A stretch of 64,000 nucleotides of DNA from a virus (lineage: Duplodnaviria; Heunggongvirae; Uroviricota; Caudoviricetes). A program made the position numbers and the translations under genes. This document shows, piece by piece, positions 2,259-55,674 of the stretch (positions within the stretch are counted from its first letter, which is position 1; every line of letters begins with the position of its first letter). The notes under the pieces are model-generated. The model was not told the DNA's origin and ran no database searches. It saw only the letters and a program-made list of their open reading frames with translations. The stretch lies in the IMG/VR virus record IMGVR_UViG_3300010002_000010, positions 27,949-91,948 of that record, one strand, 5' to 3'.

Positions 2259-2302
2259 TCTGCACACGGTAAAATTCTGATTTTATTCTGCATAAATAGC
2301 CA

Positions 2303-2376: not shown

Positions 2377-2411
2377 ATAAATAGCATTATAATATGAGAG
2401 GAAGTAAAATT

Positions 2412-3401
2412 ATGGCAAAGAAACGTAACTCATTTTTTAACGAAGAAACCTATGCGATCGTAAATAAGAAATCAAAGGATATTGTAGAGGATTATAATCT
2501 CGAACTTAAATCAAAAAAGAAAGCGGAGAAAACTATCTATCAGTATATTGCTGATATTAAAATGTTCCTCTGTTATGTTCATGATAATTTTGATGACAAG
2601 TATCTATTGGATCTTAAGAAACGAGACTTCCGCCGGTTCTTCTTGGCTCTTCAAGATTCAGGAGCTTCGTCTGCACGGATCAACCGCGTCCAATGTTCGC
2701 TTCGGAACATCTTAGAATTTTGTATGGAAGACGATGACGAATACGAAGATTACGAAATCAATGTAATGAAATCCGTCAAAGGTTTGGTAAAAGAAGAAGT
2801 CCGCGAAATCCACTTCCTACCAAATGAAGATGTCGAATTGATCCTAGATTATTTGATTGAAAAACAAAAATACCAGCAAGCTTTATACCTGGCAATTAGC
2901 TATGAATCTGCAGGTCGCCGGAATGAAGTACACCAAGTTAAAAAAACGGACTTCCTAGAAAACAACCGAACCAATATTGTTCAAGGTAAACGCGGTAAAA
3001 AATTCTCATTGCTTTATTTTGGTCGATCAAAAGAAATTGCAAAACTGTATTTCGATCAACGCGGTGAGGATAATATTGATTCTCTTTGGGTTTCTGGTGA
3101 AGGTGAAGATCTTCGGCCTGCAAAATATGAAGCTCTTTATAACTGGGTTATCACATTCCGCCGGATCCTATTGCGTTTAACTGGAAAAGATATTGAGTTC
3201 AATCCCCACAGTTTACGGCATACAAGCCTCGAGAATTATTCTGATGGATCCCATTATGTATTAAAAGAATTGGGAAAAGACAAGTTCGATATTAATGTTC
3301 TTCGTCTGATTGCAAACCATTCGGACATCTCGACTACCGCAAATTATTTGAAAAATAAAGATGAAGAAGAACTTAATAACGCTTTTGGTTTTGGATCATA
3401 A
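2412..3401 (+). CDS. tyrosine site-specific recombinase (phage-integrase family); could be an integrase, a Xer-like resolvase or an SPbeta MrpR-like recombinase-fold regulator
   Basis: C-terminal HSLRHTS (HxxR) and a Tyr in STTANYL; start moved to the ATG at 2412, which has RBS gagaggaag (the track ORF begins at 2394). Confidence 0.8.
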   Translation: MAKKRNSFFNEETYAIVNKKSKDIVEDYNLELKSKKKAEKTIYQYIADIKMFLCYVHDNFDDKYLLDLKKRDFRRFFLALQDSGASSARINRVQCSLRNILEFCMEDDDEYEDYEINVMKSVKGLVKEEVREIHFLPNEDVELILDYLIEKQKYQQALYLAISYESAGRRNEVHQVKKTDFLENNRTNIVQGKRGKKFSLLYFGRSKEIAKLYFDQRGEDNIDSLWVSGEGEDLRPAKYEALYNWVITFRRILLRLTGKDIEFNPHSLRHTSLENYSDGSHYVLKELGKDKFDINVLRLIANHSDISTTANYLKNKDEEELNNAFGFGS

Positions 3402-3421
3402 TAAAAAGAGTGGGGTTTCCC
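3391..3421. terminator. bidirectional rho-independent terminator between convergent genes
   Basis: aaagagtggg-gttt-cccactcttt with T-runs on both strands. Confidence 0.7.
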
Positions 3422-3435
3422 ACTCTTTACATAAA

Positions 3436-3918
3436 TCAATCTTTAATTACTGATCTCCAATAATTTTGAGCTGGTGTGTAAACTGGCGGTGTTTCAATTG
3501 TATGGCCAATATCTACTTCCAATTTATTCATGTCAACCGTGGCAGAGAACTCAAAATTATCAATTGTTTCGGTTGAATAATAGTCTGCCTGCGGATAATT
3601 GACAATAAAGATATAACCTTCTGTCTCATTAAACTTAGCAAATTTTTTATCTAATCCGTCACCCACCGCATCTTTCAAAACTGATGGCCCTTTGTTTTTA
3701 AGATCCCATTCATATTTTTCAAGAGCTCTTAAAAGGTCTGTAACCGATTCGTTTGATTTTGCTATATCCTTTGAAATATATTGATAAAGAGCATGGATCA
3801 TTTTTGTAACAGTAACTTTTTCGGTTTTAAAATGGTATTCCTTAATTGAAGCTTCAATCATTTTATTAACGGCATCAACGGCTTCAATAGCTTTCTTACC
3901 TTCAGTGTTATATTTCAT
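3436..3918 (-). CDS. hypothetical protein (160 aa)
   Basis: ORF with RBS gaggagg; 1-nt overlap with the upstream gene. Confidence 0.6.
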   Translation of the reverse strand: MKYNTEGKKAIEAVDAVNKMIEASIKEYHFKTEKVTVTKMIHALYQYISKDIAKSNESVTDLLRALEKYEWDLKNKGPSVLKDAVGDGLDKKFAKFNETEGYIFIVNYPQADYYSTETIDNFEFSATVDMNKLEVDIGHTIETPPVYTPAQNYWRSVIKD

Positions 3919-4308: not shown

Positions 4309-4336
4309 ATTATACTTGATTTTTAAAATAAGTAAA
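4309..4336 (-). promoter_or_regulatory. conserved phage promoter (minus-strand TTTACT-N16-TATAATgtaaa) for the 4282-3436 operon
   Basis: Plus strand reads ttatttacattatacttg...agtaaagaaaa; belongs to the ~25-copy family. Confidence 0.6.
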
Positions 4337-4357: not shown

Positions 4358-4420
4358 GCTCTGTATTGCGTTGAGTTGGCGGTATGCCTTACCCATTTAA
4401 TTTCATTGCACCACAGGAGC
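4358..4420. repeat. palindromic hairpin element, copy A (arms GCTCTGTATTGCGTTGAG / GCACCACAGGAGC around a ~30-nt loop)
   Basis: The 17-18-nt arm motif recurs at 11513-11574 and 12963-13025 in both orientations. Confidence 0.55.
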
Positions 4421-4452
4421 AATCTGAAAAGATCCAAATAAAAAAACGTCCC

Positions 4453-4710
4453 TCAATAGAGGAACATCTTTTTGTCTTTGATGAATGGTTCTCCGCTTTT
4501 ATATTCCTTTGTTGATAAAGGACCTGCAAATAATTTCATATTAGAATCCAAAAGCATATATACATTAATTCCCCGGTCGATTCCTTTTACAATGAAAAGT
4601 TCTACAACCTCAAATGCTTTTTTCAATAAAGATCCATATTCCATTTTAGCTTCAATGTACGGAAGAATAATATTTGTTTCTTTGTCCCAGATATATTTTT
4701 CGAGTTTCAT
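4453..4710 (-). CDS. hypothetical protein (85 aa)
   Basis: ORF with an imperfect hairpin plus T-run terminator at ~4437-4470. Confidence 0.5.
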   Translation of the reverse strand: MKLEKYIWDKETNIILPYIEAKMEYGSLLKKAFEVVELFIVKGIDRGINVYMLLDSNMKLFAGPLSTKEYKSGEPFIKDKKMFLY

Positions 4711-4782
4711 TTATAACAGCTCCTTCTTATTTATAATTTAATTATACTATATTATTGAGGATCCGTATATAATTTAAGTAAA

Positions 4783-4808
4783 AAAAAATCCCTCGAAAGG
4801 GATTAATT
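4783..4808 (-). terminator. rho-independent terminator
   Basis: tccctc-gaaa-gggat hairpin flanked by A/T runs. Confidence 0.7.
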
Positions 4809-4809
4809 T

Positions 4810-5208
4810 TTAGATCTTATCATAGAACATTGCTCTGTCAATAGTGCTTTTAATACCATTGATTGGATTTTCCCCAACAATAGTTCTTTTAGTTTTATCA
4901 TTTTGTAAAAGCTTGAATAACAGAGCTTCGTTTTTATTTGATTTAATATAGAACATAGATCCGATTTCTAATTCATTAAGAACCTTCATTCGTTTTTCTT
5001 TTTCTTCTTGCGGGTTAGAGTTTGCAATGACTTCTTTAATTCCAGCAATTGGAATTGAATAAGGAATGCCATTCATTTTTCCAACAAACTTAACTCGCTT
5101 AGCTTCAACGAACTCGCATTCTTGTCCGTTTTTTAGTTTAATAGTATCTCCTTGGTTTGCGGATGCAATCATGTTGATCTGTTCAAAAGTAGGTTGTTGA
5201 GTTGTCAT
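4810..5208 (-). CDS. hypothetical protein (132 aa)
   Basis: ORF with its own promoter and terminator. Confidence 0.6.
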   Translation of the reverse strand: MTTQQPTFEQINMIASANQGDTIKLKNGQECEFVEAKRVKFVGKMNGIPYSIPIAGIKEVIANSNPQEEKEKRMKVLNELEIGSMFYIKSNKNEALLFKLLQNDKTKRTIVGENPINGIKSTIDRAMFYDKI

Positions 5209-5257
5209 TTTAAATTCCTTCTTTCATGTATGGTTTTTTGTTTCTGTCTTCTATTTA

Positions 5258-5286
5258 ATTATACAACAGTGCGCAAAAATTGTAAA
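5258..5286 (-). promoter_or_regulatory. sigma-A-like promoter TTTACA-N17-TATAAT (minus strand)
   Basis: Reverse complement of tgtaaa (5281-5286) and attata (5258-5263); a terminator hairpin (atccc-aatta-aggga) sits immediately upstream at 5291-5318. Confidence 0.65.
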
Positions 5287-5310
5287 TAAAAAAATCCCAA
5301 TTAAGGGATT

Positions 5311-5637
5311 TTAATTTCTAAGATATTCTTCTTCTTCTAAAATAACATCCCAAACATACGGAGAAACATACAGATTTCTAAATGAGTTATTTCCAATTTT
5401 CTTGAAGATCTGATACCAATATGAGTCTCCTCCGTAAGATAACTTTTCTTGATTTTCAAGAACGGATATTGTATTTGTTATTACAACATTATATGCAAAC
5501 TTGAATAGTTCAGCAGACGTATCAGGTATGAACCAAAGACTTCCGGTCGAAGAAACTAACGTAACCGAATTTTCCGCGAGACATGCGAAGCAAAGATTGT
5601 TGTCATCCAGATATTTAATTTGTTGATCTGTTGTCAT
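5311..5637 (-). CDS. hypothetical protein (108 aa), paralog of 5736-6050
   Basis: N-terminus MTTDQQIKYLDDNNLCFACLAENSVTLV aligns with MKTNQDLQHLVEKNLTFVCVTDTSVTLV. Confidence 0.6.
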   Translation of the reverse strand: MTTDQQIKYLDDNNLCFACLAENSVTLVSSTGSLWFIPDTSAELFKFAYNVVITNTISVLENQEKLSYGGDSYWYQIFKKIGNNSFRNLYVSPYVWDVILEEEEYLRN

Positions 5638-5675
5638 TTTAAAAACTCCTCAAAATGTATTTTGTCTTCTATTTA

Positions 5676-5704
5676 ATTATACGTCAGCGCGGAAAAAATG
5701 TAAA
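5676..5704 (-). promoter_or_regulatory. sigma-A-like promoter TTTACA-N17-TATAAT (minus strand)
   Basis: attata at 5676-5681 and tgtaaa at 5699-5704; terminator hairpin directly upstream. Confidence 0.65.
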
Positions 5705-5735
5705 TAAAAAACCCCGATTTCTCGAGGTTTTATTT

Positions 5736-6050
5736 TTATTTCATTTTCTTAATTTCTTCGAAGATCTCATGTTTCACGAAGAAGTTATAAATGTTGTCAT
5801 CCCATTTTGTATCTTCTTCAATTTTCATCCAGAAATTATCCAATCCATAATGAGTTATCATATCTTGTTCTTCAAACTCAGAAACAATATTCTCATTGAC
5901 AAGTTTCTGTACGTCTTCAAAAATTGGATTTTCCATTGGGATGTAATACAGATTATCATTTTTTGGAACGAGTGTTACAGATGTATCTGTGACACACACA
6001 AACGTTAAATTTTTTTCTACGAGATGTTGAAGATCTTGATTTGTTTTCAT
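5736..6050 (-). CDS. hypothetical protein (104 aa), paralog of 5311-5637
   Basis: Paralogy read directly from the N-terminal alignment. Confidence 0.6.
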   Translation of the reverse strand: MKTNQDLQHLVEKNLTFVCVTDTSVTLVPKNDNLYYIPMENPIFEDVQKLVNENIVSEFEEQDMITHYGLDNFWMKIEEDTKWDDNIYNFFVKHEIFEEIKKMK

Positions 6051-6089
6051 TTTAAAAGCCCCTTTGTTTTTTAATTACCTTACAATTTA

Positions 6090-6118
6090 ATTATACGTCA
6101 TATTCCCGCAGATGTAAA
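6090..6118 (-). promoter_or_regulatory. sigma-A-like promoter TTTACA-N17-TATAAT (minus strand)
   Basis: attata at 6090-6095 and tgtaaa at 6113-6118; terminator hairpin at 6121-6148. Confidence 0.65.
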
Positions 6119-6148
6119 TAAAAAAATCCCAATTAAGGGATTTTATTT

Positions 6149-6526
6149 TTACATGAATGTTGTATTGAAAATGTTTTCAAGTTCTTCGAATTGTGAATTA
6201 TTAATGAGATAATGTTTTTCTTCAAGATCTTTGAAACGTCCAACATACGGGATTGAGATTGTATTTGGATTGTTTAAGATGAAATGTCGCGAATCAAGAT
6301 ATGCTCGTTCGTTTACAAAACATAAGATCTCATTGTACGCAGGAATGACTTCAATGACTTTTGTTTTCTCATTGATTGTTACAAACGAATAATTGATATT
6401 ATCCATTTCTTCGTGCATAGAACTAATGATGTCATCCATATTCATTGTTTCTGTTTCTGTCATTTCTGAAAGATCTCGGATTTTCATAATCGATTCGTTC
6501 ATCTGTTCAATTGTCAAGTTTTTCAT
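6149..6526 (-). CDS. hypothetical protein (125 aa)
   Basis: Start moved to the ATG at 6526 (MKNLTIEQ...) with RBS aaaggacg; the track ORF is longer at its 5' end. Confidence 0.55.
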   Translation of the reverse strand: MKNLTIEQMNESIMKIRDLSEMTETETMNMDDIISSMHEEMDNINYSFVTINEKTKVIEVIPAYNEILCFVNERAYLDSRHFILNNPNTISIPYVGRFKDLEEKHYLINNSQFEELENIFNTTFM

Positions 6527-6657
6527 TTTTACACGTCCTTTGTTTTTTTTTGTTTTAATCTTCCTTACATATATAATTATAACATGATCTGCGGGATTTG
6601 TGTTGATTTTATTGAAAATAATTAAAAAAACTTTTTTATTTATTTTTCTAAAAACTA

Positions 6658-6686
6658 TGTACAAAGCCCGTAAATCTTAGTATAAT
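6658..6686 (+). promoter_or_regulatory. plus-strand early promoter TGTACAaagccc-N-TATAAT
   Basis: tgtaca at 6658-6663, 17-nt spacer beginning aagccc, tataat at 6681-6686. Confidence 0.6.
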
Positions 6687-6742
6687 AAATTATAGAGTTA
6701 ATTAACAGCGACTCTAAAAAACTTAGAAACGAGTTGAAAAAA

Positions 6743-6943
6743 ATGAACTTACATGATTTAAATGAGTATCGAAAACAGAAAATGCAGAATGAAAATTATC
6801 AGATTCAAGTTAGATCTTTATTGAATCCAGACGAACTAAAACAATTCAATAAAGCCATTGCACAAGGACAATACATGCAAGCCGTAAACATTGCGACTCC
6901 TGCAATCAACAAGAAGTTACAAGACACATACGGATTGAAATAA
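6743..6943 (+). CDS. hypothetical protein (~66 aa)
   Basis: ATG at 6743 (the track ORF begins at a TTG at 6734); terminator downstream. Confidence 0.5.
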   Translation: MNLHDLNEYRKQKMQNENYQIQVRSLLNPDELKQFNKAIAQGQYMQAVNIATPAINKKLQDTYGLK

Positions 6944-6944
6944 G

Positions 6945-6975
6945 ACAGATCGGCTTCGGCCGATCTTTTTATTTT
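6945..6975 (+). terminator. rho-independent terminator
   Basis: agatcggc-ttcg-gccgatct followed by ttttatttttt. Confidence 0.75.
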
Positions 6976-7612
6976 TTCCCGTTTTTTAAATCTTAAAGTG
7001 CCGTTTTGAAATTGTCAGAATATTCCGAATGTTCCGTTTTTAATGCCGGAAATTTTTTCAATATTCCGAATTTTCGGAATTGTCTGAATATTCATAAAAC
7101 TCGAAGTGCCGTGAATTATCAGAAAATTCTGAATATTCGATCTATTATAATTTTTAAAATATTCTAAATATTCCGACAATTTGAAAACTCGAAAGATTTA
7201 GAATTATCTAAATATTCGAAATTATCTGAACATTCGAAGTTGTCAGAATATTCCGATCATTGTAAATTGTCAGAATATTTCGAATTGATCGACAATTTGG
7301 AATTGTCAGAATATTCAGATCATTCAAAATATTCATAATTTTCCGCCGACGAACCACCGCAAATTATTTTAATATTCCGAATATTACGAATATTCCGACA
7401 ATTCTAAATAGATCGAATTTTCTGAATATTCCGAATAATTTGAATTTTCCGAATTGTCAGACTATTCAGAATTTATTGAATTAACGCCTATGAAAGAATA
7501 TTCCGACAATTCAATTTTTACAATAATCGAAATATTCCGAATATTTTGAAAATTCAAATTGATCGAAAATTCAGAATATTTGTAATATAAAATAACTATT
7601 TTAAAATGTGAA
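6976..7612. repeat. repeat array R1: about 20 copies of the GAATATTC-centred motif (full site approx TTGTCAGAATATTCTGACAA, half-site GAATATTCCGACAATTC) in both orientations
   Basis: Counted directly; contains the variant GTGCCGTGAATT and the GC island CCGCCGACGAACCACCG at 7343-7359. Confidence 0.9.
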
Positions 7613-7621
7613 ATAAAAAAA

Positions 7622-7648
7622 ATGGGATTCTTTCGAATCCCGAATGAT
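7622..7648 (-). terminator. rho-independent terminator for 7656-7907
   Basis: gggattc-tttcg-aatccc with a T-run on the minus strand. Confidence 0.7.
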
Positions 7649-7655
7649 TTGTTTC

Positions 7656-7907
7656 TTAAAGTAAGTTATTCAATTCTTCAACATGTTTTGAAACTCGATT
7701 TGCTTGAAGAATGAAAATTGTCAATCCTTGTGGACTCATTTCATTTTCATGAAACTTAATTACGAAATGATTTGAGATCGGATTGTGAGATAATGTCACT
7801 TCTGAAATCGGATTGTCAAAGTGAAAACGGCCAAACGAATATGTCGCATTTGCATATCCTAATTCTTCAAGTTTTGAAATTACGTTTTGTACTGTTTTGT
7901 AATTCAT
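7656..7907 (-). CDS. hypothetical protein (83 aa), possible helix-turn-helix DNA-binding protein
   Basis: RBS aaaggacg; the N-terminal KTVQNVISKLEELGYANAT segment looks like an HTH (weak). Confidence 0.5.
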   Translation of the reverse strand: MNYKTVQNVISKLEELGYANATYSFGRFHFDNPISEVTLSHNPISNHFVIKFHENEMSPQGLTIFILQANRVSKHVEELNNLL

Positions 7908-8026
7908 TTTTCAACGTCCTTTATTTTGTATTTAAGGTCTTTTGTTTGTCTCAACCTTATATATTAATTATACATCTAAAGCCCACAAAAGTACACAGTT
8001 TTTGGAAATTAAATTGTAAAACTTTT

Positions 8027-8160
8027 AGAAACAATTCTGACAATTTAATATGATCGTGTCAGAATATTCTGACAATTCAAAAAAACTTAATTGTCGGAAT
8101 TTTCAGAATATTAAAACAATGAAGCCGCAATTGTCAGAATTGTTCTAAAAAATAATACAA
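8027..8160. repeat. repeat array R2: about 4 copies of the GAATATTC motif, including the perfect palindrome GTCAGAATATTCTGAC
   Basis: Read directly. Confidence 0.85.
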
Positions 8161-8179
8161 ATTAATTTCCGTAAAACTG

Positions 8180-8208
8180 TGTACAAAGCCCATTTTAAAT
8201 GTTATAAT
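8180..8208 (+). promoter_or_regulatory. plus-strand early promoter TGTACAaagccc-N-TGtTATAAT
   Basis: tgtaca at 8180-8185, tataat at 8203-8208, 17-nt spacer. Confidence 0.65.
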
Positions 8209-8260
8209 ATATATAAGAGGTTAAGTAATTGATCTCAAAAACGAAAAGAGGATGATGAAA

Positions 8261-8434
8261 ATGTTACAAGAAACTGCAAAATGTTTACAAGAACTTTCAG
8301 AAAACGGATTTTACAAATTTGAAAACGAAATGTTCGATTTTGAAAATGTTGTTGAATTAGTAAATCCAATTCTCAAATCTTTGAAAGTTGATTTTGAAGT
8401 AAATAACGAAAAAGAAGAAATCAAAATTTTCTAA
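8261..8434 (+). CDS. hypothetical protein (57 aa)
   Basis: Third in-frame ATG chosen (aagagg RBS, 9-nt spacing); terminator follows at 8436-8465. Confidence 0.5.
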   Translation: MLQETAKCLQELSENGFYKFENEMFDFENVVELVNPILKSLKVDFEVNNEKEEIKIF

Positions 8435-8464
8435 AATGAAAGAGTCGAAAGACTCTTTTCATTT

Positions 8465-8905
8465 TGTTTTCAATTGTCAGACAATTCTGAAAATTCTGAA
8501 TCGATCATTGTTTGAATTTTTGGAATATTCAGACAATTCGAAATATTCAGGAAATTTAGAAAAGTCGTTAAATTCAGAATATTCAGATAATTCAGAATAG
8601 TCGTTAAATTCAGACAATTCAAAATGGCCGCAATATTCGAACAATTCAGAATATTCTGACAATTCGAAATGATCTAAATATTCAGACAATTCAAAATATT
8701 CTGACTAATTAGAATTGGCGCTTAATTCAGAATATTCCGACAATTACGACAATTATGAATATTCTAATAATTCGAAATATTCAGAATTTTCTGATAATTT
8801 GCGGTGGTTCGTCGGCGGGACAAATAGATCGAAGATTGAGAATATTCCGACAATTCAGAATATTGAAAAAATTCACGGCACATTACTCAGAATATTCTGA
8901 CAATT
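8465..8905. repeat. repeat array R3: about 13 copies of the GAATATTC motif; contains TAATTTGCGGTGGTTCGTCGGCGG at 8794-8818
   Basis: Counted directly; the repeat-derived ORFs 8477-8689 and 8715-8900 are artefacts. Confidence 0.9.
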
Positions 8906-8907
8906 CC

Positions 8908-8933
8908 AAAATATAAAAAATCCCAAAATGGGA
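8908..8933 (-). terminator. rho-independent terminator for 8934-9233
   Basis: atccca-aaa-tgggat with a T-run on the minus strand. Confidence 0.7.
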
Positions 8934-9233
8934 TTATTTAAAAGATCTTCTGTATTGAGAAGTGACTTTACGTCTGAGATTTGAGAGCCATGTAGAGTCC
9001 TGTGTCGCTCTGTATGACTCAATAGCATTGTCATAGTCATCTGTATTAACTTCAAAAAAGTAGTGATTTAATACATCTTCATCTGCGACGAGAGCTAGTT
9101 CTTTATGATAGATACTATTTTCTTTTTTGAAAAACCAGATCTCATTTTCTCGTTTTTCAATTTCGTAAAATGCTCCAGAAATGATTGTAGGATTTGTAAT
9201 TGTTTTCATAAGCATAACTATTTTTCGTGGCAT
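8934..9233 (-). CDS. hypothetical protein (~99 aa)
   Basis: Start set to the third ATG (9233), which has 9-nt spacing from aaaaagg. Confidence 0.5.
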   Translation of the reverse strand: MPRKIVMLMKTITNPTIISGAFYEIEKRENEIWFFKKENSIYHKELALVADEDVLNHYFFEVNTDDYDNAIESYRATQDSTWLSNLRRKVTSQYRRSFK

Positions 9234-9360
9234 TTTCATCATCCTTTTTTCTGTATTTTAGATCTGCATGAAACAGCTCATAAGAAAATTGTACTACAAA
9301 ATTTCCGCAATGTACATAGTTTTTAAATAAAAAAAAATAAAAAGAATTTCCATAAAACTA

Positions 9361-9389
9361 TGTACATTTGCGGGAATTACTGTTATAAT
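9361..9389 (+). promoter_or_regulatory. plus-strand early promoter TGTACA-N17-TGtTATAAT
   Basis: tgtaca at 9361-9366, tataat at 9384-9389. Confidence 0.65.
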
Positions 9390-9443
9390 AAATATATAAG
9401 GTTAAGCAATTAATCTTAAATAAAAACGAAATGAGTTGAGAAA

Positions 9444-9686
9444 ATGTTAGTCAAAGAAACAGAGCAAGCTCTGAAAGATCTAATGAAACTTGACAAAGTA
9501 GAATTATTAACAACGAAAGGAAAAATTCAAACTTGGTTCGTGTGTGAAAAAAACGGACAACAAGTCATTCTAAGAACGTTTCACTACATGAGCAATAACA
9601 AAAAGAACGTTTCGATCTGTGAACTAATGACACTTGAAAACGGAAAAACAATTTGGTACCCACGAAAAAAATTCATAAATGTATGA
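9444..9686 (+). CDS. hypothetical protein (80 aa)
   Basis: Conserved leader upstream; terminator at 9688-9716 (aaagagccgcgaggctcttt). Confidence 0.55.
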   Translation: MLVKETEQALKDLMKLDKVELLTTKGKIQTWFVCEKNGQQVILRTFHYMSNNKKNVSICELMTLENGKTIWYPRKKFINV

Positions 9687-9719
9687 AAATGAAAAAGAGC
9701 CGCGAGGCTCTTTTCATTT

Positions 9720-10035
9720 GTCATTTTCAATTGTCGGAATATTCTAAATAATTAGAAAGATCGAAAAATTGAATTGTCAGAATATTCTTTCACAAGCGCT
9801 AATTCACAATATTCTGACAATTCAGAATTGTCATTAAATTCAGAATATTTAGAAAATAAAAAATGTTTTTAGATCATTTTGAATATTCAGATAATTTAAA
9901 ATATTCAAAAGATTGAAAAAATTCGCGGCTCTTAAAACAGAACGTTTTGATAATTCTAAATATTCTGACAATTTCGAATATTCTGAAAATTACGAATATT
10001 CAGAAGATTGAAAAAATTCACAGCACGTTAGCTTT
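9720..10035. repeat. repeat array R4: about 9 copies of the GAATATTC motif
   Basis: Counted directly. Confidence 0.9.
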
Positions 10036-10099
10036 TAAAGATCTAGAAAAAACAACATTATAATAGATAAAAATAATTTAAAGAACTTTTAAAAAAGCT

Positions 10100-10128
10100 A
10101 GCACAAAGCCCGCAGAACGCGTTATAAT
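10100..10128 (+). promoter_or_regulatory. plus-strand early promoter AGCACAaagccc-N-TATAAT
   Basis: Read directly; 17-nt spacer. Confidence 0.55.
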
Positions 10129-10180
10129 ATTATTAAGAGATGAGTTATTGATCTCAAATAAAACGAAATGAGCTGATAAC

Positions 10181-10543
10181 ATGATTATCAACGACACAAA
10201 CACAGAAGCTTACAATCTTCAAAAAAACGCAAAAATGTATCTTTTAAAAGAAGATTCAAAAAAACTCGATCTTTCAAAAGCTTCATATGTTTTCGTAACA
10301 GATTCTCTTAAAGATTCAAAAAACATTAAGTCTGTTTCTTGGCTCGACGAAGATGATTCAGATGAAGTATATTTTCTTTCATACATGACAAATGAAGAAA
10401 TTGAAAATGAGCTTGTTGAAGTTGATTTTTACTTCTTAGAAAGAATTAGAAATTGTTACAGAAATACAAAACAATCTTATCTTCAAAATTACAAAGATGC
10501 TTGCAATGTCTGTGACTTAGAACTTGAAAAATTAACAAAGTGA
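10181..10543 (+). CDS. hypothetical protein (120 aa), paralog of 10685-11035
   Basis: Shared segments ...LSKASYVFV... and ...YQNYKD.C..C.LELEKLTK. Confidence 0.6.
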   Translation: MIINDTNTEAYNLQKNAKMYLLKEDSKKLDLSKASYVFVTDSLKDSKNIKSVSWLDEDDSDEVYFLSYMTNEEIENELVEVDFYFLERIRNCYRNTKQSYLQNYKDACNVCDLELEKLTK

Positions 10544-10684
10544 AATATTAAAAACAAGAGCTTTCGAGCTTTTGTTTTTTTTTATTTTTTTTAAAAATTT
10601 ATAACAAAAATCCCGCAAAACATGTTATAATGATATTAGAGATGAGCTGTTGATCTTAAAAAAAATGAAATGAGATGATTTAAA

Positions 10685-11035
10685 ATGAACTTTGAAAAAA
10701 ACACAGACGCTTCAAGATTAGTTGAGATTGCAGATATGTATCTTCTTCGAGAAGATTCAAAACAGATTGATCTTTCGAAAGCATCATACGTCTTCGTTTT
10801 AAAAGCTTTTGAACATTCAAAAGAAATCTATTGGATAGATCAAGATGATAATTTCAAAGTCGAATGGACGTGCTTAATGAAAAATGAAGATATTGAAAAA
10901 CAACTTGTAAAAGTTAGCTCAGGCTTTTTAGAAAAAGTTATTGCAATTTACAACAACAAAGAACAAACGTATTATCAAAATTATAAAGATGATTGTAAGC
11001 TCTGTGAACTAGAACTTGAAAAACTAACAAAATAA
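10685..11035 (+). CDS. hypothetical protein (116 aa), paralog of 10181-10543
   Basis: Tandem duplication that includes the promoter and leader; terminator at ~11041-11085. Confidence 0.6.
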   Translation: MNFEKNTDASRLVEIADMYLLREDSKQIDLSKASYVFVLKAFEHSKEIYWIDQDDNFKVEWTCLMKNEDIEKQLVKVSSGFLEKVIAIYNNKEQTYYQNYKDDCKLCELELEKLTK

Positions 11036-11164
11036 AAGATCTGAAACAAGAGTTAAAAGCTCTTGTTTTTTTTTATTTATTTTCATTTTTTTTAACACAA
11101 AGCCCGCAAGCTGTGTTATAATTATAAATGTAAGACAAATACAAAACTTGAGAGGATGTTTAAA

Positions 11165-11461
11165 ATGTACTATATTTTAACAAAAGATCTAAATGACGAA
11201 ATGCGAGAATTTTCAATGTTTGCAGTGAGTATTCATTTCAACTTAAGAACTACTAAGAAAGAAACTTACAACGTGTTTGAAGCTATTAATGTAGATGAAA
11301 AAATTCTCATTAAAACATTCGAACAGAAAGAATTTGAAAGTCTTTTCATTGAAACTTCTGAAGAAAATTTCAAGAAATATAAAGATCTTGTTGAAAATGC
11401 AAACTTTGAAGATGCAGAAGATCTTTCAATTAGTCTTGTTGAAGCTCATAACAAAAAATAA
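11165..11461 (+). CDS. hypothetical protein (~98 aa)
   Basis: Start at the ATG at 11165 (gagagg RBS, 9-nt spacing); terminator aatctctc-attt-gagagatt at 11468-11497. Confidence 0.55.
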   Translation: MYYILTKDLNDEMREFSMFAVSIHFNLRTTKKETYNVFEAINVDEKILIKTFEQKEFESLFIETSEENFKKYKDLVENANFEDAEDLSISLVEAHNKK

Positions 11462-11512
11462 TTAATGAAGAATCTCTCATTTGAGAGATTTTTTATTTGC
11501 GGATTTTTAAAT

Positions 11513-11574
11513 GCTCTGAGTTGCAACGAGTAGTATGAACGTCTTACTCAATTAAGTTCGTCGCAACACAGAGC
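11513..11574. repeat. palindromic hairpin element, copy C (GCTCTGAGTTGCAACGA ... TCGTCGCAACACAGAGC, ~28-nt loop)
   Basis: 17-nt imperfect inverted arms between convergent terminators. Confidence 0.6.
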
Positions 11575-11593
11575 TCATTTGATTTTTCAATAT

Positions 11594-11638
11594 AACATTA
11601 AAATATAAAAAAAGAAGATCCGTTAGGATCTTCAATTT
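11594..11638 (-). terminator. rho-independent terminator for 11640-12101
   Basis: gaagatcc-gtta-ggatcttc with a T-run on the minus strand. Confidence 0.7.
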
Positions 11639-11639
11639 A

Positions 11640-12101
11640 TTATTCGTTAACTTCTTCAATGTTTGTGATTTGGAAAGTTGCAAGGGCTTTTTTGTTACGT
11701 CCGCGAAGCAAGTACCAAAGAATGTCATTGCGGAATGTAGTTCCATGTTTTTCATTGTAATATTCCGCAAAATCTTTATTTGAGAAGAACTCTTTAGTTT
11801 CTCCGTCTTCAGTTGTAACACGAACCATTGAAGAGTTACGACGTCCTGGAGTGCTTGAAGTTTTTTGAGCTTGAGCTTCGCGGTTTAATTGAGCGTCTTG
11901 TTCGATTTGTTCAACGATTTCTGATTTTTCCCCAGTCATTTCTGTGTGTTGTAATTCAAGGATTGCAGAAACGAGTTGAGATTGTTTCATTTTCCATGCT
12001 CCGTGAATCTCATAGTTTTTGTCTTTGATGATCTGTTTAAGTTCCGCAACTTTCATTCCTTCGAGTTGAGTCGCTGTGTACGTTGTAGTTGTCTGTGTCA
12101 T
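11640..12101 (-). CDS. hypothetical protein (153 aa) with an N-terminal SAP/Rho-N-like helix pair
   Basis: LEGMKVAELKQIIKDKNYEIHGAWKMKQSQLVSAI resembles a SAP/Rho_N motif (weak). Confidence 0.5.
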   Translation of the reverse strand: MTQTTTTYTATQLEGMKVAELKQIIKDKNYEIHGAWKMKQSQLVSAILELQHTEMTGEKSEIVEQIEQDAQLNREAQAQKTSSTPGRRNSSMVRVTTEDGETKEFFSNKDFAEYYNEKHGTTFRNDILWYLLRGRNKKALATFQITNIEEVNE

Positions 12102-12317
12102 TTTAATTTCCTCCTAGTAGTTGGGTTTGTTTGATTTGTTATTACCTTATATACTTATTATAGGCCATTTTTAATGGGATGTACACTGTTTTATCCAAAT
12201 TCTTTTGTTTTTTTTAAAAAAACTTTTTTCTTTAATTTCCAAAAAACTAACACAGATCTATGGAAATAGTGTATAATAAAGAAGTAAGGTAATTCAAATT
12301 TAAGGAGCTGTTAGAAA

Positions 12318-12674
12318 ATGAAAACTAAGACGTATATTGTGAATCCAAAAGACAAGAATTTTGGAGGGTATCTAGTATTTACAGAAGAATGGTTAGAAGA
12401 TTCAATTACAATGGTTGAAGACGCTTTGGTACCTGGATCTTACTTTGGAGTAAAAACAGAAAACCTAATGGAACTCAAAAAGAAAGAAGCTAAATGGCTT
12501 TTCGATTTTGATGAAGTTACTTCTGTTCCAAAAAGCATTCGCTCGACCTATATCAATTTGCTTCCGTTCAAGTATAGATTTGAAACAGATGATTATCATG
12601 AAAGATTCCATGTTCGAAAATCCATTTTATTAACCGCATACTTCGGCGGGAATCCTGAAACTTATTTAGGATAA
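12318..12674 (+). CDS. hypothetical protein (118 aa)
   Basis: RBS ttaaggagc; promoter AACACA-N17-TATAAT at ~12249-12277. Confidence 0.55.
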   Translation: MKTKTYIVNPKDKNFGGYLVFTEEWLEDSITMVEDALVPGSYFGVKTENLMELKKKEAKWLFDFDEVTSVPKSIRSTYINLLPFKYRFETDDYHERFHVRKSILLTAYFGGNPETYLG

Positions 12675-12696
12675 TTAATAAAAAGTAATATACGGA

Positions 12697-12738
12697 TCTT
12701 GCTCTAAGTGTTATAATATACTTAAGAGCAAGATTTTT
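12697..12738 (+). terminator. terminator hairpin with a TATAAT -10 box in its loop (atcttgctct-aagtgttataatatactta-agagcaagat-tttttt)
   Basis: 10-bp perfect stem plus T-run; TATAAT at 12712-12717 lies in the loop, upstream of the 12761 gene. Confidence 0.6.
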
Positions 12739-12760
12739 TAATTCAAAGGAGGAAATTAAA

Positions 12761-12934
12761 ATGAACAGAGGAAATGCGAGACGCGGAATGAAAGTGCATA
12801 CAACATATTCAGAATATCCTAATGTAAAAGGTATTATTGTTTCAATTGGATATAATTGGGTATTGATTCGAGATGAAAAAGGAAAAGAAGACAGACATCC
12901 GCTTTTATCGGTCGAAGAAATTTTAGGATCCTAA
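12761..12934 (+). CDS. hypothetical small protein (57 aa); not in the ORF track
   Basis: RBS caaaggaggaaattaaa; terminator aggatcc-taac-ggatcct at 12925-12955. Confidence 0.45.
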   Translation: MNRGNARRGMKVHTTYSEYPNVKGIIVSIGYNWVLIRDEKGKEDRHPLLSVEEILGS

Positions 12935-12962
12935 CGGATCCTTTTTTATTTACTTTGAATTA

Positions 12963-13025
12963 GCTCTGTGTCGCAACGAAATACTTTTTGCAAGGGGTAT
13001 GACCAGCTCAACGCAATACAGGAGC
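12963..13025. repeat. palindromic hairpin element, copy B (GCTCTGTGTCGCAACGA ... GCTCAACGCAATACAGGAGC)
   Basis: Same arm motif as copies A and C; lies between convergent terminators. Confidence 0.6.
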
Positions 13026-13026
13026 A

Positions 13027-13057
13027 AATTAAAAATCCCTCTTTCGAGGGATCCTAA
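13027..13057 (-). terminator. rho-independent terminator for the topoisomerase operon
   Basis: atccctc-tttc-gagggat followed by a T-run. Confidence 0.7.
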
Positions 13058-20546: not shown

Positions 20547-20576
20547 GTCTATTCTTCCTTTCTTTTATAAAATTTC

Positions 20577-20716
20577 CATTTTATTCTATATAAATATATA
20601 CAGTTTGATCTGTATCGCACCATTTTAGCCCTGTATGGCTTCCGGAGCACTTTGAGTTGGCTGGTCTGTAAAATATAGCCTCCGGAGATCACACAGGACG
20701 ATCTGGAGCGAGGTTT
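20577..20716 (-). ncRNA. GC-rich structured intercistronic element E1 (~140 nt), homologous to 42996-43135
   Basis: Shared blocks TTATTCT..., TAGCCCTGTATGGC and CACACAGGACGATCTGGAGC; internal inverted repeats (TCCGGAG/CTCCGGA); stands out in AT-rich DNA. Confidence 0.5.
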
Positions 20717-22811: not shown

Positions 22812-23438
22812 TTATTCTAAATATGAAGATTTAATAATGTCTTGGAGATGAGTTTTTAAGACTCGAATCCGAGAATGAGCCGCCTGTGTGGTAATGCCCT
22901 TAGCCTCCGCATAATCGACAACGGCATTTTTCTTTCGATCAAGGATCAACTCGAGAAGTTCCTTGTCTTTGTCTTTGATGAGAGCGTTTTCAATAATGGA
23001 CAATAGCTCTTTTCCATCATATGTTGATTCAACTGAATCTGATCCATCAATCAAAAGATCTTGTAACTCATCAGCAGACTCTGCTTCCGAAGTAACAACT
23101 TCTTTATTTAGTGAAATTTCTTTTCCGTGATCTTCTCGTTTTTTAGCTTTTGTTGGCTGAAGCACCTTGTCTCGGGCGCGATTCATTCTGTGGTGTAAGT
23201 AAGTTGAAAAACAATTTCCGGTAGTTGAATCATACCGATCATAGGCTACCCAAAGTTGCAAGAAAAATTCTTGTCGCATGTCTTCTTCATTGTATCGATT
23301 GAAAAACATGTTCTTATTCATATCGTGAACATTTTTCTCAATAAGAGGAATAAACATTTCGTGGACTTCTTCATATGTCAAATCTTTTAAAACTTTCTTG
23401 CCATCTTCCATAATGTAAAGCTTCTTTGTTTGATCCAT
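22812..23438 (-). CDS. sigma-70 family RNA polymerase sigma factor
   Basis: Region 2 (FFLQLWVAYDRYD...FSTYLHHRM) and a C-terminal region 4 HTH (GITTQAAHSRIRVLKTHL). Confidence 0.8.
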   Translation of the reverse strand: MDQTKKLYIMEDGKKVLKDLTYEEVHEMFIPLIEKNVHDMNKNMFFNRYNEEDMRQEFFLQLWVAYDRYDSTTGNCFSTYLHHRMNRARDKVLQPTKAKKREDHGKEISLNKEVVTSEAESADELQDLLIDGSDSVESTYDGKELLSIIENALIKDKDKELLELILDRKKNAVVDYAEAKGITTQAAHSRIRVLKTHLQDIIKSSYLE

Positions 23439-26746: not shown

Positions 26747-27985
26747 TTATTCTTCATTGTACAGTTTGACTTTCTCGCCTTGTAGATAGATTTCTCCATT
26801 TTTCTGGCCAACAATTTTAATCGTGGTATGATTAATAGATGATCCGCGAGTATTTAAAACAAACTCGGCATCCCGTCGGTAACCATTCAAGATCAGTAAT
26901 GTTCCGCGCTCAAACCAGCTAGGATCCAAGACTTCTTTATCTTTTCCTTTTACCTGAACAACTTTTTTATCATAGTGGGCAAAAGTTCCTTTTGTATAAC
27001 GGATTGTGACAACACCATCTTGAGTTAATACAAAGATCAAGCTTTTGGTTTTGTCTTTATCTACTACTGTTCCCGCAATTGTGCTAATTTGATAGTTCGG
27101 GATTTCACGGCCACGCCATTTTTTCCATTCTCGAACAACAGGAACTTCCGGAAGCTCTTCAAATTTGGAAATATTATAAAGGCTTGACAGATCATAATAG
27201 TCCAGTTCATGTTTATGCTTATAATAAAGCAATGTTGACATTTCCCAAGCTTCAATTGATCCCGAGCATTCATCGATCCAAAATTGTTTACGGTTTTTGG
27301 CAGTAAGAATCTGAACAGTTTCAGGTTTTGCTAACCATTCTTTCAGTCGGCCAATACCTTTTTCATAGTATTTCTTGAATGATTTTTCATCAATTACAAG
27401 CTTTCCTTTTTCAAAAGTGTATTCGACATGATCTTTATATTTTGCAATAAATTCATCTTCGATTTCACGAGTCATTACTGCTTTTTTACCGACCGCTTTA
27501 ATTTTGAAATTATACAATTCCAATTCTGGTCCGTATTCTTCTTTATTAATATGATCGATTACATGCGGAAGATTTGCCATTGTCAATTTTGTTTTTGCTG
27601 GTACCGCAATCTTAACAAAATCAATCATTAGTTTTCTGCGGTCTGATTCAAATTCATCAAATGATCCTGACTTAATTAATGTTACAATTTTCTTATTTGA
27701 AATTCCAGATCCCTCAAATGACGTTTTTTCTAAGAAATTCTCAAAAGAAGTATAAGGACGATTAGCAATGACAGTTGCGACAACATCTTTCCCAAGCCCA
27801 ACAATTGGTTTCAATCCAAACAGGATCTTATTCTCTGATTCAAGTGGCGTAAATCCTGGACGAGATTTATTAATATCTGGCGGAAGAACTTCATCTTTAA
27901 TATTTCCGATCGCTTTTGCAATCTTACCATATTTTGTATTAGTTTCTTTTTCACCTGATAATCCTGAGTTTACGGATAAACAAGC
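26747..27985 (-). CDS. dnaE: DNA polymerase III alpha (DnaE)-like polymerase, exon 2 (C-terminal part: ILPPDIN-like motif, HhH, OB region); 5' boundary approximate
   Basis: VLPPDINKS and LKPIVGLGKDVVATVIANRPY align with DnaE fingers/HhH segments; continues the 29046-31538 frame across the intron. Confidence 0.75.
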   Translation of the reverse strand, partial: ACLSVNSGLSGEKETNTKYGKIAKAIGNIKDEVLPPDINKSRPGFTPLESENKILFGLKPIVGLGKDVVATVIANRPYTSFENFLEKTSFEGSGISNKKIVTLIKSGSFDEFESDRRKLMIDFVKIAVPAKTKLTMANLPHVIDHINKEEYGPELELYNFKIKAVGKKAVMTREIEDEFIAKYKDHVEYTFEKGKLVIDEKSFKKYYEKGIGRLKEWLAKPETVQILTAKNRKQFWIDECSGSIEAWEMSTLLYYKHKHELDYYDLSSLYNISKFEELPEVPVVREWKKWRGREIPNYQISTIAGTVVDKDKTKSLIFVLTQDGVVTIRYTKGTFAHYDKKVVQVKGKDKEVLDPSWFERGTLLILNGYRRDAEFVLNTRGSSINHTTIKIVGQKNGEIYLQGEKVKLYNEE

Positions 27986-29045
27986 TGTTTTCCAAAATAC
28001 AGATCCAAAGAGAAGGCAGATATTCATCTCAATCATCAAGATCAAAGTATAGCCCGCAATGTGTGGAAGTGAGAATGCATCATGTGATCCAAATTTTTCA
28101 ATCTGGCATGGACTATATCTTTACAATGCGATCCAATTATTTAAATTTGAAATAGGGCGCCCGTCGAAAGCTATTTGATCTTTGAATATTTACTTCAATA
28201 TGATTCACCCGCTTATTTAACTCTTTCGCGGCTTCATATATATCTGTAAACTCTTTGATTAAAGATCCATCAATGTTAAAATACAAAATTGGTTTTCCAA
28301 CTAATTCTTGTTTGCGGTTTTTAATTCCGCCCACTTTTGCATTTATAGGACATTGTTTTTTACGCTTTTCGCTGGTTCGATTAATCAGTCCATTTTCTGA
28401 AGCATGTTTCATATTGCCCGCGTTATCTGTCCATTCTAAATTTGTATAATGGTTATTTTGTTTATTACCATCTAAATGGTTAACCACATTAAATTTATTA
28501 GGATCCGGGTTTTTAACAAACGTTTCACATACCAGCCGATGAATATATTTCTCAATTGGTCCTAATCTTGTTCTAAAATATCCATTAGGTAATAGAGTTT
28601 GCTTCTCAATTCGTTCTGGCCGTATATACTTTCTTCCGTCTGTTCCAATATGAATATGATTTAATCGTTTTACTTCACCGTTTTCCGAAACTAAAAAATT
28701 TGAATCATCTGCTGTTGTTTTCCATTCCATAAGAAACTCTCCTTATAAATGGATCGCATTGTACTTTGCTCTTCGAATAACGTACCAATAGTTATCCTAC
28801 TCTACTAACTTCCACAATTTCTGTGTGCTTTCGATAGTCTCTACACCTTCAATTAAGCTAGGCACGGTATTATCGGCTACCCATATTTCAGGGTTTAGAT
28901 TCTCTTAGTCAGCGGCTTCGTCTTTTGGTAAATCCTGTCATTTCCTTGTTAGGCTTGGACAGAAGTCTTATTCAACTGATACCGTTAGCATGATCTTAAG
29001 ATCATACACCCCTGGTTGGGTTCACAAAGTTAACGGGCAAGCTAT
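27986..29045 (-). mobile_element. group I intron (approximate bounds) in the polymerase gene, carrying an HNH homing endonuclease ORF
   Basis: ~1.06 kb interruption between aligned DnaE segments (...SYVWTYCLEPQF | ...ACLSVNSG...LPPDIN); ~310-nt GC-richer non-coding block at 28731-29045. Confidence 0.7.
28137..28730 (-). CDS. HNH homing endonuclease (intron-encoded)
   Basis: HNH-type motif ...VNHLDGNKQNNHYTNLEW...; RBS aaggagag. Confidence 0.75.
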   Translation of the reverse strand: MEWKTTADDSNFLVSENGEVKRLNHIHIGTDGRKYIRPERIEKQTLLPNGYFRTRLGPIEKYIHRLVCETFVKNPDPNKFNVVNHLDGNKQNNHYTNLEWTDNAGNMKHASENGLINRTSEKRKKQCPINAKVGGIKNRKQELVGKPILYFNIDGSLIKEFTDIYEAAKELNKRVNHIEVNIQRSNSFRRAPYFKFK

Positions 29046-42975: not shown

Positions 42976-42995
42976 TATTACACCTCGTAAAATTT

Positions 42996-43135
42996 ATATT
43001 TTATTCTGCATACGGTGTTTTAAATTGAGCCAGATCGCGTTAAACTAGCCCTGTATGACCTCCTAGCGGCCCTGAACCACTTCATTTAAGTTCAGGACTG
43101 TTAGGAAGCCACACATCGCGATCTGGAAGCAATTT
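42996..43135 (-). ncRNA. GC-rich structured intercistronic element E2, homolog of 20577-20716
   Basis: TAGCCCTGTATGACCTCC..., CCTGAAC/GTTCAGG stem and CACACATCGCGATCTGGAAGC shared with E1; CCAGATCGCG/CGCGATCTGG inverted repeat. Confidence 0.5.
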
Positions 43136-44019: not shown

Positions 44020-44100
44020 ATTTAGGAGCATCTTCCGTCTTGGCGTCAATCTAGGTCGCTCAGGCTAATTGCCGTCGTGGCGTACTCCGCTCGGAAAGAT
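44020..44100 (-). ncRNA. GC-rich structured 5' leader between the TGTACA promoter and the 43998 start codon
   Basis: ~80-nt GC-rich block (ggcgtcaatctaggtcgctcaggc...gccgtcgtggcgtactccgctcgg) downstream of the -10 at 44127. Confidence 0.4.
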
Positions 44101-44126
44101 CTTATTTGCTTGCTCTCTATATATTA

Positions 44127-55230: not shown

Positions 55231-55335
55231 TTGAACTTACCTCCTACATATTTACGGCAAGAAAAAGAAGTAGAGCCGCTATAAAAGCCAGCACAAAACG
55301 GTAATCAATCTTTTTTAATAGCTTCTCTACTTTTT

Positions 55336-55674
55336 TCATAATTTAGACTCCGGAATTACAGGTAGACACTTCCGTAATAATTCGGTTTTTTTAATATATT
55401 CTTGTTCAGCCTTACTGTTTTCAGATTGCACGCGGTAACCCTCAAGTTCCCATAATCTGTTCTCCAAGCGTTTTTCCACGATCTCTTTACCAATTTCAAA
55501 ATCAAAATTTGCTGGATCAATACATGCGGATGATTCCATGATCTCAAATCCATTTTCAAGAGTCATATGGCCAACGAGAGTTTTTCCCAATTGAAAATAG
55601 TTAAACTTTGCCGTTGTCATTAAGGTGGTAACATCGGCACTTGTTACTGATTTCTTGGTAACATTTGATTTCAT
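55336..55674 (-). CDS. hypothetical protein (~112 aa)
   Basis: Start at the ATG at 55674 with RBS atggagga. Confidence 0.5.
   Translation of the reverse strand: MKSNVTKKSVTSADVTTLMTTAKFNYFQLGKTLVGHMTLENGFEIMESSACIDPANFDFEIGKEIVEKRLENRLWELEGYRVQSENSKAEQEYIKKTELLRKCLPVIPESKL

Follow-up and report, generated by a model that had tools for sequence, protein, structure and literature searches.

The window analysed here, a stretch of 64,000 nucleotides from an uncultured Bacillus-type phage with a GC content of ~33% (Caudoviricetes; IMG/VR record IMGVR_UViG_3300010002_000010, positions 27,949 to 91,948), contains a real, lineage-specific family of hairpin sequences at five loci, namely three short palindromic elements, E1, E2, and E3, and two longer hairpins, X and Y. 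The family is a modest variant of an element type that is familiar from phages, and all its members lie at the 3' ends of transcription units. The most economical reading, to which we give a probability of about 40%, is that the five loci form a single family of boundary hairpins that act in RNA as a signal for processing, stability or insulation.

The short elements E1 to E3

E1 (4358-4420, 63 bp) and E2 (11513-11574, 62 bp) are oriented on the plus strand, which is the polar strand of the family for E1, and E3 (12963-13025, 63 bp) is oriented on the minus strand and is inverted relative to the other two. Each element consists of two inverted arms and follows the common pattern GCTCTG-WRKY-GC-RWY-GA, 28 nt, TC-RWY-GC-RMYW-CAG. 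A preliminary description of the same DNA had already reported these three pairs of inverted arms and quoted their sequences correctly, whereas the spacer, given there as 25-35 nt, is exactly 28 nt in all three elements. The pattern GCTCTGWRTYGCRWYGA-N(25-33)-YRWYGCRMYWCAG matches E1 to E3 alone in the window (E2 on both strands) and gave 0 matches in 100 window shuffles; the elements are thus not due to chance. With three mismatches allowed, a lone arm matches five times against 1.6 expected, which is not significant as 5/100 shuffles reach five matches as well. Further short copies or solo arms were found in the 64 kb neither by nhmmer nor by a covariance model, and no conserved small open reading frame (ORF) is present within E1 to E3.

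The homology between the elements spans the whole 62-63 bp, including the centre. E1(+) and E2(+) are identical at 44/63 positions and E1(+) and E3(-) at 46/64, compared to 35-39 identical positions when the paralogues are aligned in the opposite orientation. Since the identity is better with E3 inverted, the family has the polarity E1(+), E2(+), E3(-). The arms pair in register in 83% of the cells, compared to 14-51% after a shift of the partner by 1-3 columns, and E2, which is the best palindrome of the three with 15/17 arm pairs, folds better as RNA than shuffled sequence (z = -3.5 and -4.6). As had been described before, the elements are richer in GC than their surroundings (45-49% vs. 27-34% in the flanks) and are not followed by a T-run on either strand. 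Because of the missing U-run, they were also rightly set apart from ordinary terminators.

The long relatives X and Y

A covariance model built from five short sequences gave two weak matches, one at 20628-20699, which is syntenic in L012, the single close relative of the phage that was found (DNA identity ~83%), and one at 43069-43098. They belong to two hairpins in the long minus-strand block of the phage, which begin ~10-20 nt from a stop codon. X (20616-20710, minus strand; 11 bits in the covariance model) is a compound hairpin of the coding strand just past the stop codon of the thymidine-kinase gene (20717), with helices of 6+10+10 bp on the sense strand. Its paralogue Y (43022-43135, minus strand) is a hairpin of ~34 bp, also of the coding strand, just past the stop codon of orf156 (43141), with helices of 10+14+10 bp. 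Therefore, the family that had been described with three members at 4358-13025 stands as far as the relationship of these three is concerned, but has two longer members beyond that range. Both long hairpins are more stable on the coding strand than on the complement because of G.U pairs: X folds with -41.9 kcal/mol (z = -4.6) on the minus strand and with -36.6 kcal/mol (z = -1.65) on the plus strand, and Y with -55.3 kcal/mol (z = -7.7) and -43.7 kcal/mol, respectively.

X and Y are clear paralogues (alignment z = 7.8) and have TAGCCCTGTATG as well as CACACA...CGATCTGGARGC in common. Moreover, X(-) aligns with E1(-) at z = 3.7 (0/500 shuffles) and with E3(+) at z = 2.9, and E1(-) aligns with Y(-) at z = 3.85 (1/500 shuffles), the opposite orientations being not significant. 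Common to X, E1(-), and E3(+) are a 5' G(C)UCCUGUG, a central ACC(A)GCCAACUCAA, and a 3' AUACAG(R)GC.

The strand-specific structure of X and Y is conserved. X differs from its counterpart in L012 by eight substitutions, none of them within a helix. The 14-bp and 10-bp helices of Y are kept in three further relatives, found via the orf156 protein (90, 87, and 66% identity), in which three changes keep the pair (GU>GC, UG>CG, CG>UG) and one breaks it. Five G.U pairs of the sense strand persist, and the loop and the internal loop are variable. In two distant relatives, Geobacillus phage GR1 and the Bacillus sp. contig L014, an ordinary terminator is present at the position of X, in keeping with a function where a transcription unit ends.

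Both long hairpins are followed by a shared motif, AGAATAAAATNNAAATTTTA, and then by a ribosome-binding site (RBS) and an ATG. Downstream of X, the conserved motif AGAATAAAATGGAAATTTTA (20568-20587, minus strand) precedes the next RBS and ATG, and the same motif, AGAATAAAATATAAATTTTA, is located downstream of Y (42988-43007, minus strand), where it is kept in all four relatives (neighbouring protein 66-100% identical). A third copy of the motif TATGCAGAATAAAATNNAAATTTTAC (2270-2289, minus strand) is directed into the endolysin gene at its 3' end. As the two other copies follow X and Y and precede genes, the phage sigma factor (22812-23438) may recognise the motif as a promoter.

Position at the ends of transcription units

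The window starts with lysis genes, followed by a gene for a Xer-like tyrosine recombinase (2394-3401) and a 9.6-kb region with small genes on both strands, after which the topoisomerase A and B genes and the long minus-strand block with replication and nucleotide-metabolism genes follow. E1 sits between the intrinsic terminator of orf85 (4441-4466, minus strand), which lies ~20 nt ahead of it along transcription, and a sigma-A-type promoter TTTACT-16-TATAAT of the next minus-strand unit (4309-4336, minus strand), which lies 22 nt past it; orf85 itself (4453-4710, minus strand) is located upstream and reads into the complement of E1. E2 and E3 sit between convergent terminators. For E2, these are the intrinsic terminators of orf153 (11607-11633, minus strand), 32 nt before the element, and of orf98 (11471-11498, plus strand) on the other flank, and for E3 those of orf57 (12925-12948, plus strand), 14 nt before the element, and of the topoisomerase A-subunit gene (13031-13052, minus strand) on the other flank; the terminators of orf85, orf98, and the A-subunit gene were read from the sequence. 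The earlier statement that all three elements lie between convergent or adjacent terminators is therefore valid for E2 and E3, whereas E1 lies between a terminator and a promoter, and all three are found at boundaries of transcription blocks, as had been proposed. According to the gene calls, the early region has five convergent junctions, two with E2 and E3, two with iteron arrays, and one with a shared terminator only. The upstream gene reads into the same element strand at 5/5 loci of the family, which is informative only for E1, X, and Y. No paralogy was found among the three genes upstream of E1 to E3.

E2 and E3 further have a terminator core in common, on the same side relative to their polarity. 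The core is GATCCGTTAGGATC in the terminator of orf153, and the terminator of orf57 adjoining E3 has it as the reverse complement, GATCCTAACGGATC. Due to this shared core in the same relative orientation, E2 and E3 arose by inverted duplication of a unit consisting of terminator and element.

A putative role in RNA

The homology to the long sense-strand hairpins X and Y favours a role of E1 to E3 in RNA. At two unit ends, X and Y form RNA hairpins that are conserved on the sense strand, and E1 to E3 are related to them, have the same sense orientation, and are located at unit ends as well; all five may thus act as one family in RNA. X and Y would be transcribed as the tail of the upstream mRNA and would fold into long irregular hairpins of the coding strand. 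Such a hairpin could then be an RNA boundary signal, either as a site for double-strand-specific (RNase III-type) processing, as a barrier against 3' exonucleases, or as both, which would uncouple and stabilise the upstream message and prevent transcription from running into the next unit. We infer the transcription of E1 to E3 as well as the action of the hairpin, while relationship, position, orientation, and the strand-specific conserved structure of X and Y are shown. As they are situated 14-32 nt behind strong intrinsic terminators, they would act on read-through transcripts only, and because they are palindromic, they could serve transcripts from either side at convergent junctions. E1 to E3 would represent short copies, of which E1 and E3 look partly decayed.

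Several observations speak against this role in RNA. As a consequence of their position behind strong terminators, little RNA may contain E1 to E3 at all. Their homology to X and Y is moderate (z about 3-4), and E2 is linked to the long hairpins weakly. E1 and E3 fold like shuffled sequence (RNA z = -0.7 to -1.4; DNA z = -0.6 and +0.6) and look like degenerate, partly decayed palindromes, so that the earlier designation as large hairpins is appropriate for E2, but not for E1 and E3. The pairing in the five distinct short copies does not exceed that of column shuffles, and there is no covariation signal. Wobble pairs in E1 to E3 amount, by our own tally, to eight cells on the polar strand and five on the sense strand, and the sense strand is thus not favoured. 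The one arm change in the E1 orthologue of L012 leaves a U.G in place of U-A on the plus strand, and breaks the pair on the sense strand. Moreover, U-runs follow X and Y on the plus strand only and are absent on the coding strand; therefore, X and Y could as well be terminators of antisense transcription. Finally, the fixed 28-nt centre and the block-wise conservation of the six arms fit recognition of DNA by a protein at least equally well.

Alternatively, E1 to E3 could be duplex-DNA sites for a dimeric or tetrameric protein of the phage or the host, which are kept in transcription-free pockets where the protein is not swept off. Their role might be that of a roadblock or an insulator, or a topological or bridging one; or the type II topoisomerase of the phage might prefer them where positive supercoils accumulate from convergent transcription. 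The six arms share GCTC(C)TG-N4-GC-N3-GA and vary at the same few positions without covariation, the five sequences agree in a centre of exactly 28 nt, and arms never occur singly. No transcription is expected on either strand at the three elements, E1 and E3 form hairpins poorly, and the topoisomerase operon adjoins E3. However, the connection to the topoisomerase is one of adjacency alone, and a DNA-binding protein was not identified among the neighbouring small ORFs. The arm centres are 46 bp apart, which corresponds to ~4.4 helical turns and places them out of phase, and the related hairpins X and Y have another arm spacing and other inner arms. They are part of a transcribed operon, and their folding is optimised for a single RNA strand. 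Altogether, duplex-DNA sites are the main alternative to the role in RNA, and a less likely one.

Conservation and distribution of the short elements

All three elements are present at syntenic sites in L012. The orthologue of E2 (L012:13079-13140) is identical, and those of E1 (L012:19019-19081) and E3 (L012:12052-12114) are identical at 59/63 positions each. In the orthologue of E3, two arm substitutions turn a U.G and a U.U into two U-A (Watson-Crick) pairs. The identity of the orthologues (94-100%) equals that of neighbouring promoters and terminators (86-100%) and is not above it, and it exceeds the values of most coding DNA (59-97%). Two of the eight substitutions in L012 fall into the 35 paralogue-invariant columns, compared to 4.4 expected (P = 0.09). 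The phage of the window itself is present, with identical E1 to E3, in a few metagenome assemblies.

These values are also compatible with E1 to E3 being functionless, i.e., copies in decay that derive from one palindrome or from a hairpin of the X/Y type, which were duplicated together with terminator cassettes and survive only where the DNA is untranscribed. In favour of this are an identity not above that of neighbouring intergenic DNA, the weak avoidance of invariant columns, the terminator core shared by E2 and E3 in the same relative orientation, the many duplicated cassettes and genes of the region, and the degeneration of E1 and E3. Nevertheless, the paralogues are only 62-73% identical and yet have the same length except for two 1-nt indels, with both arms kept and the GC content held 15-20 points above the surroundings. 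In addition, all three are kept in the ~83%-identical relative where neighbouring genes are replaced or lost, and dead DNA is rarely kept by phage genomes. Relics without function are a somewhat less likely alternative than duplex-DNA sites.

Outside the lineage, the elements were not found. None of the three distant relatives compared, Geobacillus phage GR1, the Bacillus sp. contig L014, and the JGI contig L015, has analogues of E1 to E3, and L015 has one unrelated hairpin. In IMG/VR, the GTDB genomes (185,579 species genomes), and the JGI metagenomes, two strict and two relaxed patterns gave either no match or chance matches only, which lie in a eukaryote-like satellite and in coding sequence of a high-GC metagenome-assembled genome, and blastn against phage and plasmid collections resulted in chance matches of 19-26 nt only. 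Relatives sought through orf153 did not extend beyond the lineage either. The arm motif thus recurs at syntenic sites in L012, but is absent from GR1, L014, L015, and the public collections searched.

E2(+) and E3(-) form an inverted pair that flanks three genes, and the gene content beside E3 differs in L012, which is without orf118 and has a different small gene instead. Therefore, E1 to E3 were also considered as substrates of DNA rearrangement, either as sites of the Xer-like tyrosine recombinase or as mobile palindromes similar to miniature inverted-repeat transposable elements (MITEs) or repetitive extragenic palindromic (REP) sequences, and the pair of E2 and E3 could bound a 1.4-kb cassette in the manner of attC sites or a shufflon. 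The recombinase is encoded 1 kb from E1 and is apparently catalytic (R, K, HxxR, H, and Y by eye), and the arms resemble terminal inverted repeats. However, the spacer is 28 bp long, compared to the 6-8 bp of tyrosine-recombinase core sites, and since a single bulge is located in the 3' arm of E1, in the 5' arm of E3 (same polarity), and not at all in E2, no extrahelical base is conserved. The orientation is alike in all six assemblies spanning E2-E3 or E3 (L002, L003, L004, L012, L013, and the window), target-site duplications and empty sites are missing, and no copies exist in the bacterial genomes or other phages of the collections searched. The mosaic breakpoint beside E3 lies in the terminator, ~20-40 bp away from the element and outside of it. 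It is the only one of ~3 breakpoints relative to L012 that is near an element, and the indel of orf108 is flanked by repeated terminator-promoter cassettes. Hence, rearrangement at E1 to E3 is very improbable, the elements do not appear as the hotspots of module exchange that had been suggested, and nothing points to the proposed homing role.

Similarly improbable is the idea that E1 to E3 represent a new kind of DNA-level insulated palindrome, recognised by the phage type II topoisomerase or the Xer-like recombinase. It is just as hard to credit that such sites set topological or recombinational boundaries of the iteron-dense early region, with E1 on one side and E2 and E3 on the other. If true, they would be a phage analogue of gyrase-binding bacterial interspersed mosaic elements (BIMEs) or of cassette-bounding attC sites.

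Comparison with known element classes

By analogy, the working of E1 to E3, X, and Y would be most similar to that of phage RNase III sites, REP-type 3' stabilisers, and lambda sib, and they are probably members of none of these classes. RNase III processing hairpins of phage early mRNAs include the R sites of T7, and Panganiban and Whiteley reportedly described Bs-RNase III sites of the Bacillus phage SP82 in 1983 (cited in PMC4838370). Like the sites of T7 and SP82, the present family is small and consists of mutually similar, irregular intergenic hairpins of ~60-110 nt on the sense strand, with internal loops at fixed places, no U-run behind them, and a helix of >22 bp in X and Y. Unlike them, E1 to E3 are located behind terminators and not within a polycistronic RNA, and two of the helices are weak. 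RNase III sites have ~20 bp or more of irregular RNA helix on the transcribed strand; X and Y have this length on the sense strand, E2 has ~17 bp, and E1 and E3 have 13-14/17 pairs with a stability like shuffles.

REP and BIME sequences have roles in mRNA 3' stabilisation, attenuation, and gyrase binding. The REP/BIME (REPIN) elements of enterobacteria and pseudomonads are, like the elements of this phage, imperfect palindromes rich in GC that lie 3' of genes and in many cases between genes that converge, and to this extent the earlier comparison with REP/BIME was justified. Membership in this class did not hold, as REP/BIME elements number tens to hundreds in a bacterial chromosome, whereas the family has three short and two long copies in 64 kb of phage, with arms of 17 nt and a centre of 28 nt, and without a real match in the 185,579 species genomes or the JGI metagenomes. 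A GTAG-type head is missing beside the arms of E1 to E3, and a RAYT (Y1/HUH) transposase domain was not seen among the subset of ORFs scanned. The lambda sib retroregulator is a hairpin past a terminator that is complete only in read-through transcripts and triggers RNase III-dependent decay. E1 to E3 share the position beyond a terminator; sib, in contrast, occurs once and is tied to antitermination and to the expression of int.

For the REP/BIME, MITE, intrinsic terminator, SPBRE, PeSL, attC, and Rfam classes, every defining feature that was testable failed. MITEs have inverted arms as well, but the flanks of E1 to E3 are without duplication (ATTATTGA/AATCTGAA, TTTTAAAT/TCATTTGA, and TTGAATTA/AAATTAAA), all three sites are occupied in L012, and a parent element is present in no collection searched. 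Intrinsic terminators would require a U-run, which is absent after E1 to E3 on both strands and after X and Y on the coding strand.

The PeSL of T4-type phages combine an early promoter with a terminator stem-loop and mark the boundaries of indels (PMC2839356, PMC4122927). The phage studied here resembles them in having repeated regulatory cassettes at gene boundaries of a plastic early region, with E2 and E3 duplicated together with a terminator. However, E1 to E3 contain no promoter, and the boundaries relative to L012 are located in terminators and promoter cassettes and not in the elements. True PeSL-like units of this phage are three copies of a 79-bp terminator-plus-promoter cassette (5242-5320, 5660-5738, and 6074-6152). 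orf108 (5311-5637), which lies between the first two of them, is absent in L012, and metagenome contigs break at these repeats.

SPBRE is a 15-bp operator motif within about ten SPbeta promoters and is recognised by MrpR, a catalytically dead repressor with a recombinase fold (PMC10516654). What is reminiscent of this system is the combination of a repeated element between genes with a protein of tyrosine-recombinase fold in one Bacillus phage, but E1 to E3 are 62-bp palindromes outside promoters, and the recombinase retains R...K...HxxR...H...Y. Integron attC sites do not fit because the bulge position is not conserved and the recombinase scores far under the thresholds of both the Xer and the integron models. 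Rfam gave no match at gathering score in the whole window, and in E-value mode the surroundings of E1, E2/E3, X, and Y had chance-level matches only. A tRNA-like RNA, a ribozyme, a riboswitch or a known small RNA (sRNA) is thereby rejected, ARAGORN having found nothing and Rfam no meaningful match, and so are independent sRNA genes, as a weak promoter-like site is present upstream of E1 only. By eye, the arms and the centre showed no apparent fit to Bacillus regulator sites (LexA, Spo0A, CcpA, TnrA, parS, sigma-54, and ECF promoters) or to the pC194/phiX-type nick site.

Other features of the phage

The early region contains dozens of iterons with a 9-bp period and the consensus AGAATATTCYGACAATTCAA in four non-coding clusters (7000-7600, 8050-8150, 8465-8910, and 9720-10020), which are kept in repeated form in L012. 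The iterons are similar to CodY boxes that overlap (AATTTTCWGAAAATT), with 67 matches at <=3 mismatches compared to 29 +/- 5 expected, ~50 of them in the clusters. The arrays could be CodY-binding or titrating arrays, origin iterons or a centromere, and they look more unusual than E1 to E3 themselves. Furthermore, orf120 and orf116 (10181-10543 and 10685-11035), paralogues with 53% identity, form tandem units of ~500 bp, which have their promoter (…ACAAAGCCCGC…TATAAT) and their terminator in common, and the duplicated intergenic DNA runs to ~11126.

The replication genes of the window are nearest to those of Geobacillus phage GR1 (62% amino acid identity for pol III alpha, 53% for topoisomerase A), and the gene order parallels that of GR1. 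The contig L014, 86.6 kb of Bacillus sp. FSL R10-2789, carries genes for an actin-like (ALP_N) segregation protein, a helix-turn-helix repressor, ArdC, and PemK (2615-3439, 707-1090), and Bacillus and Priestia assemblies hold contigs of 80-100 kb with the same topoisomerase. Therefore, part of this phage group may live as phage-plasmids. Four independent assemblies (L008-L011) stop ~1360 nt past orf140, which equals the right edge of the window (~64000) and suggests a genome terminus or a repeat boundary.

Two genes are interrupted, pol III alpha (26747-31538) by an HNH/NUMOD4 ORF (28137-28730) and the large subunit of ribonucleotide reductase (46487-49783) by a GIY-YIG/I-TevI-like ORF (47674-48240); the reductase is undivided (789 aa) in L018 and L019, and Rfam found no group I intron at gathering score. 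On the minus strand, a GC-rich (~54%) leader of ~90 nt (44020-44110) extends from a promoter-like site to the RBS of a small gene (start ~44003) and may be a structured 5' untranslated region. A large inverted repeat 3' of the dihydrofolate reductase gene (55264-55336), with 23-nt arms that are 83% complementary, a 27-nt spacer, and flanking A and T runs, is unrelated to the family of E1 to E3, X, and Y.

Implications

The three sites can be annotated as members of a five-locus hairpin family, and not as terminators, REPs or mobile elements. Conceptually, this adds little, since families of hairpins between genes, at the gene ends, are already familiar. If the role in RNA is true, this phage lineage would possess boundary hairpins with a sequence of their own, similar in kind to the RNase III sites of T7 or SP82. 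They could then be used to learn how the Bacillus-type phages of ~80-95 kb, a group hardly studied so far, cut, stabilise, and insulate their early and replication transcripts.

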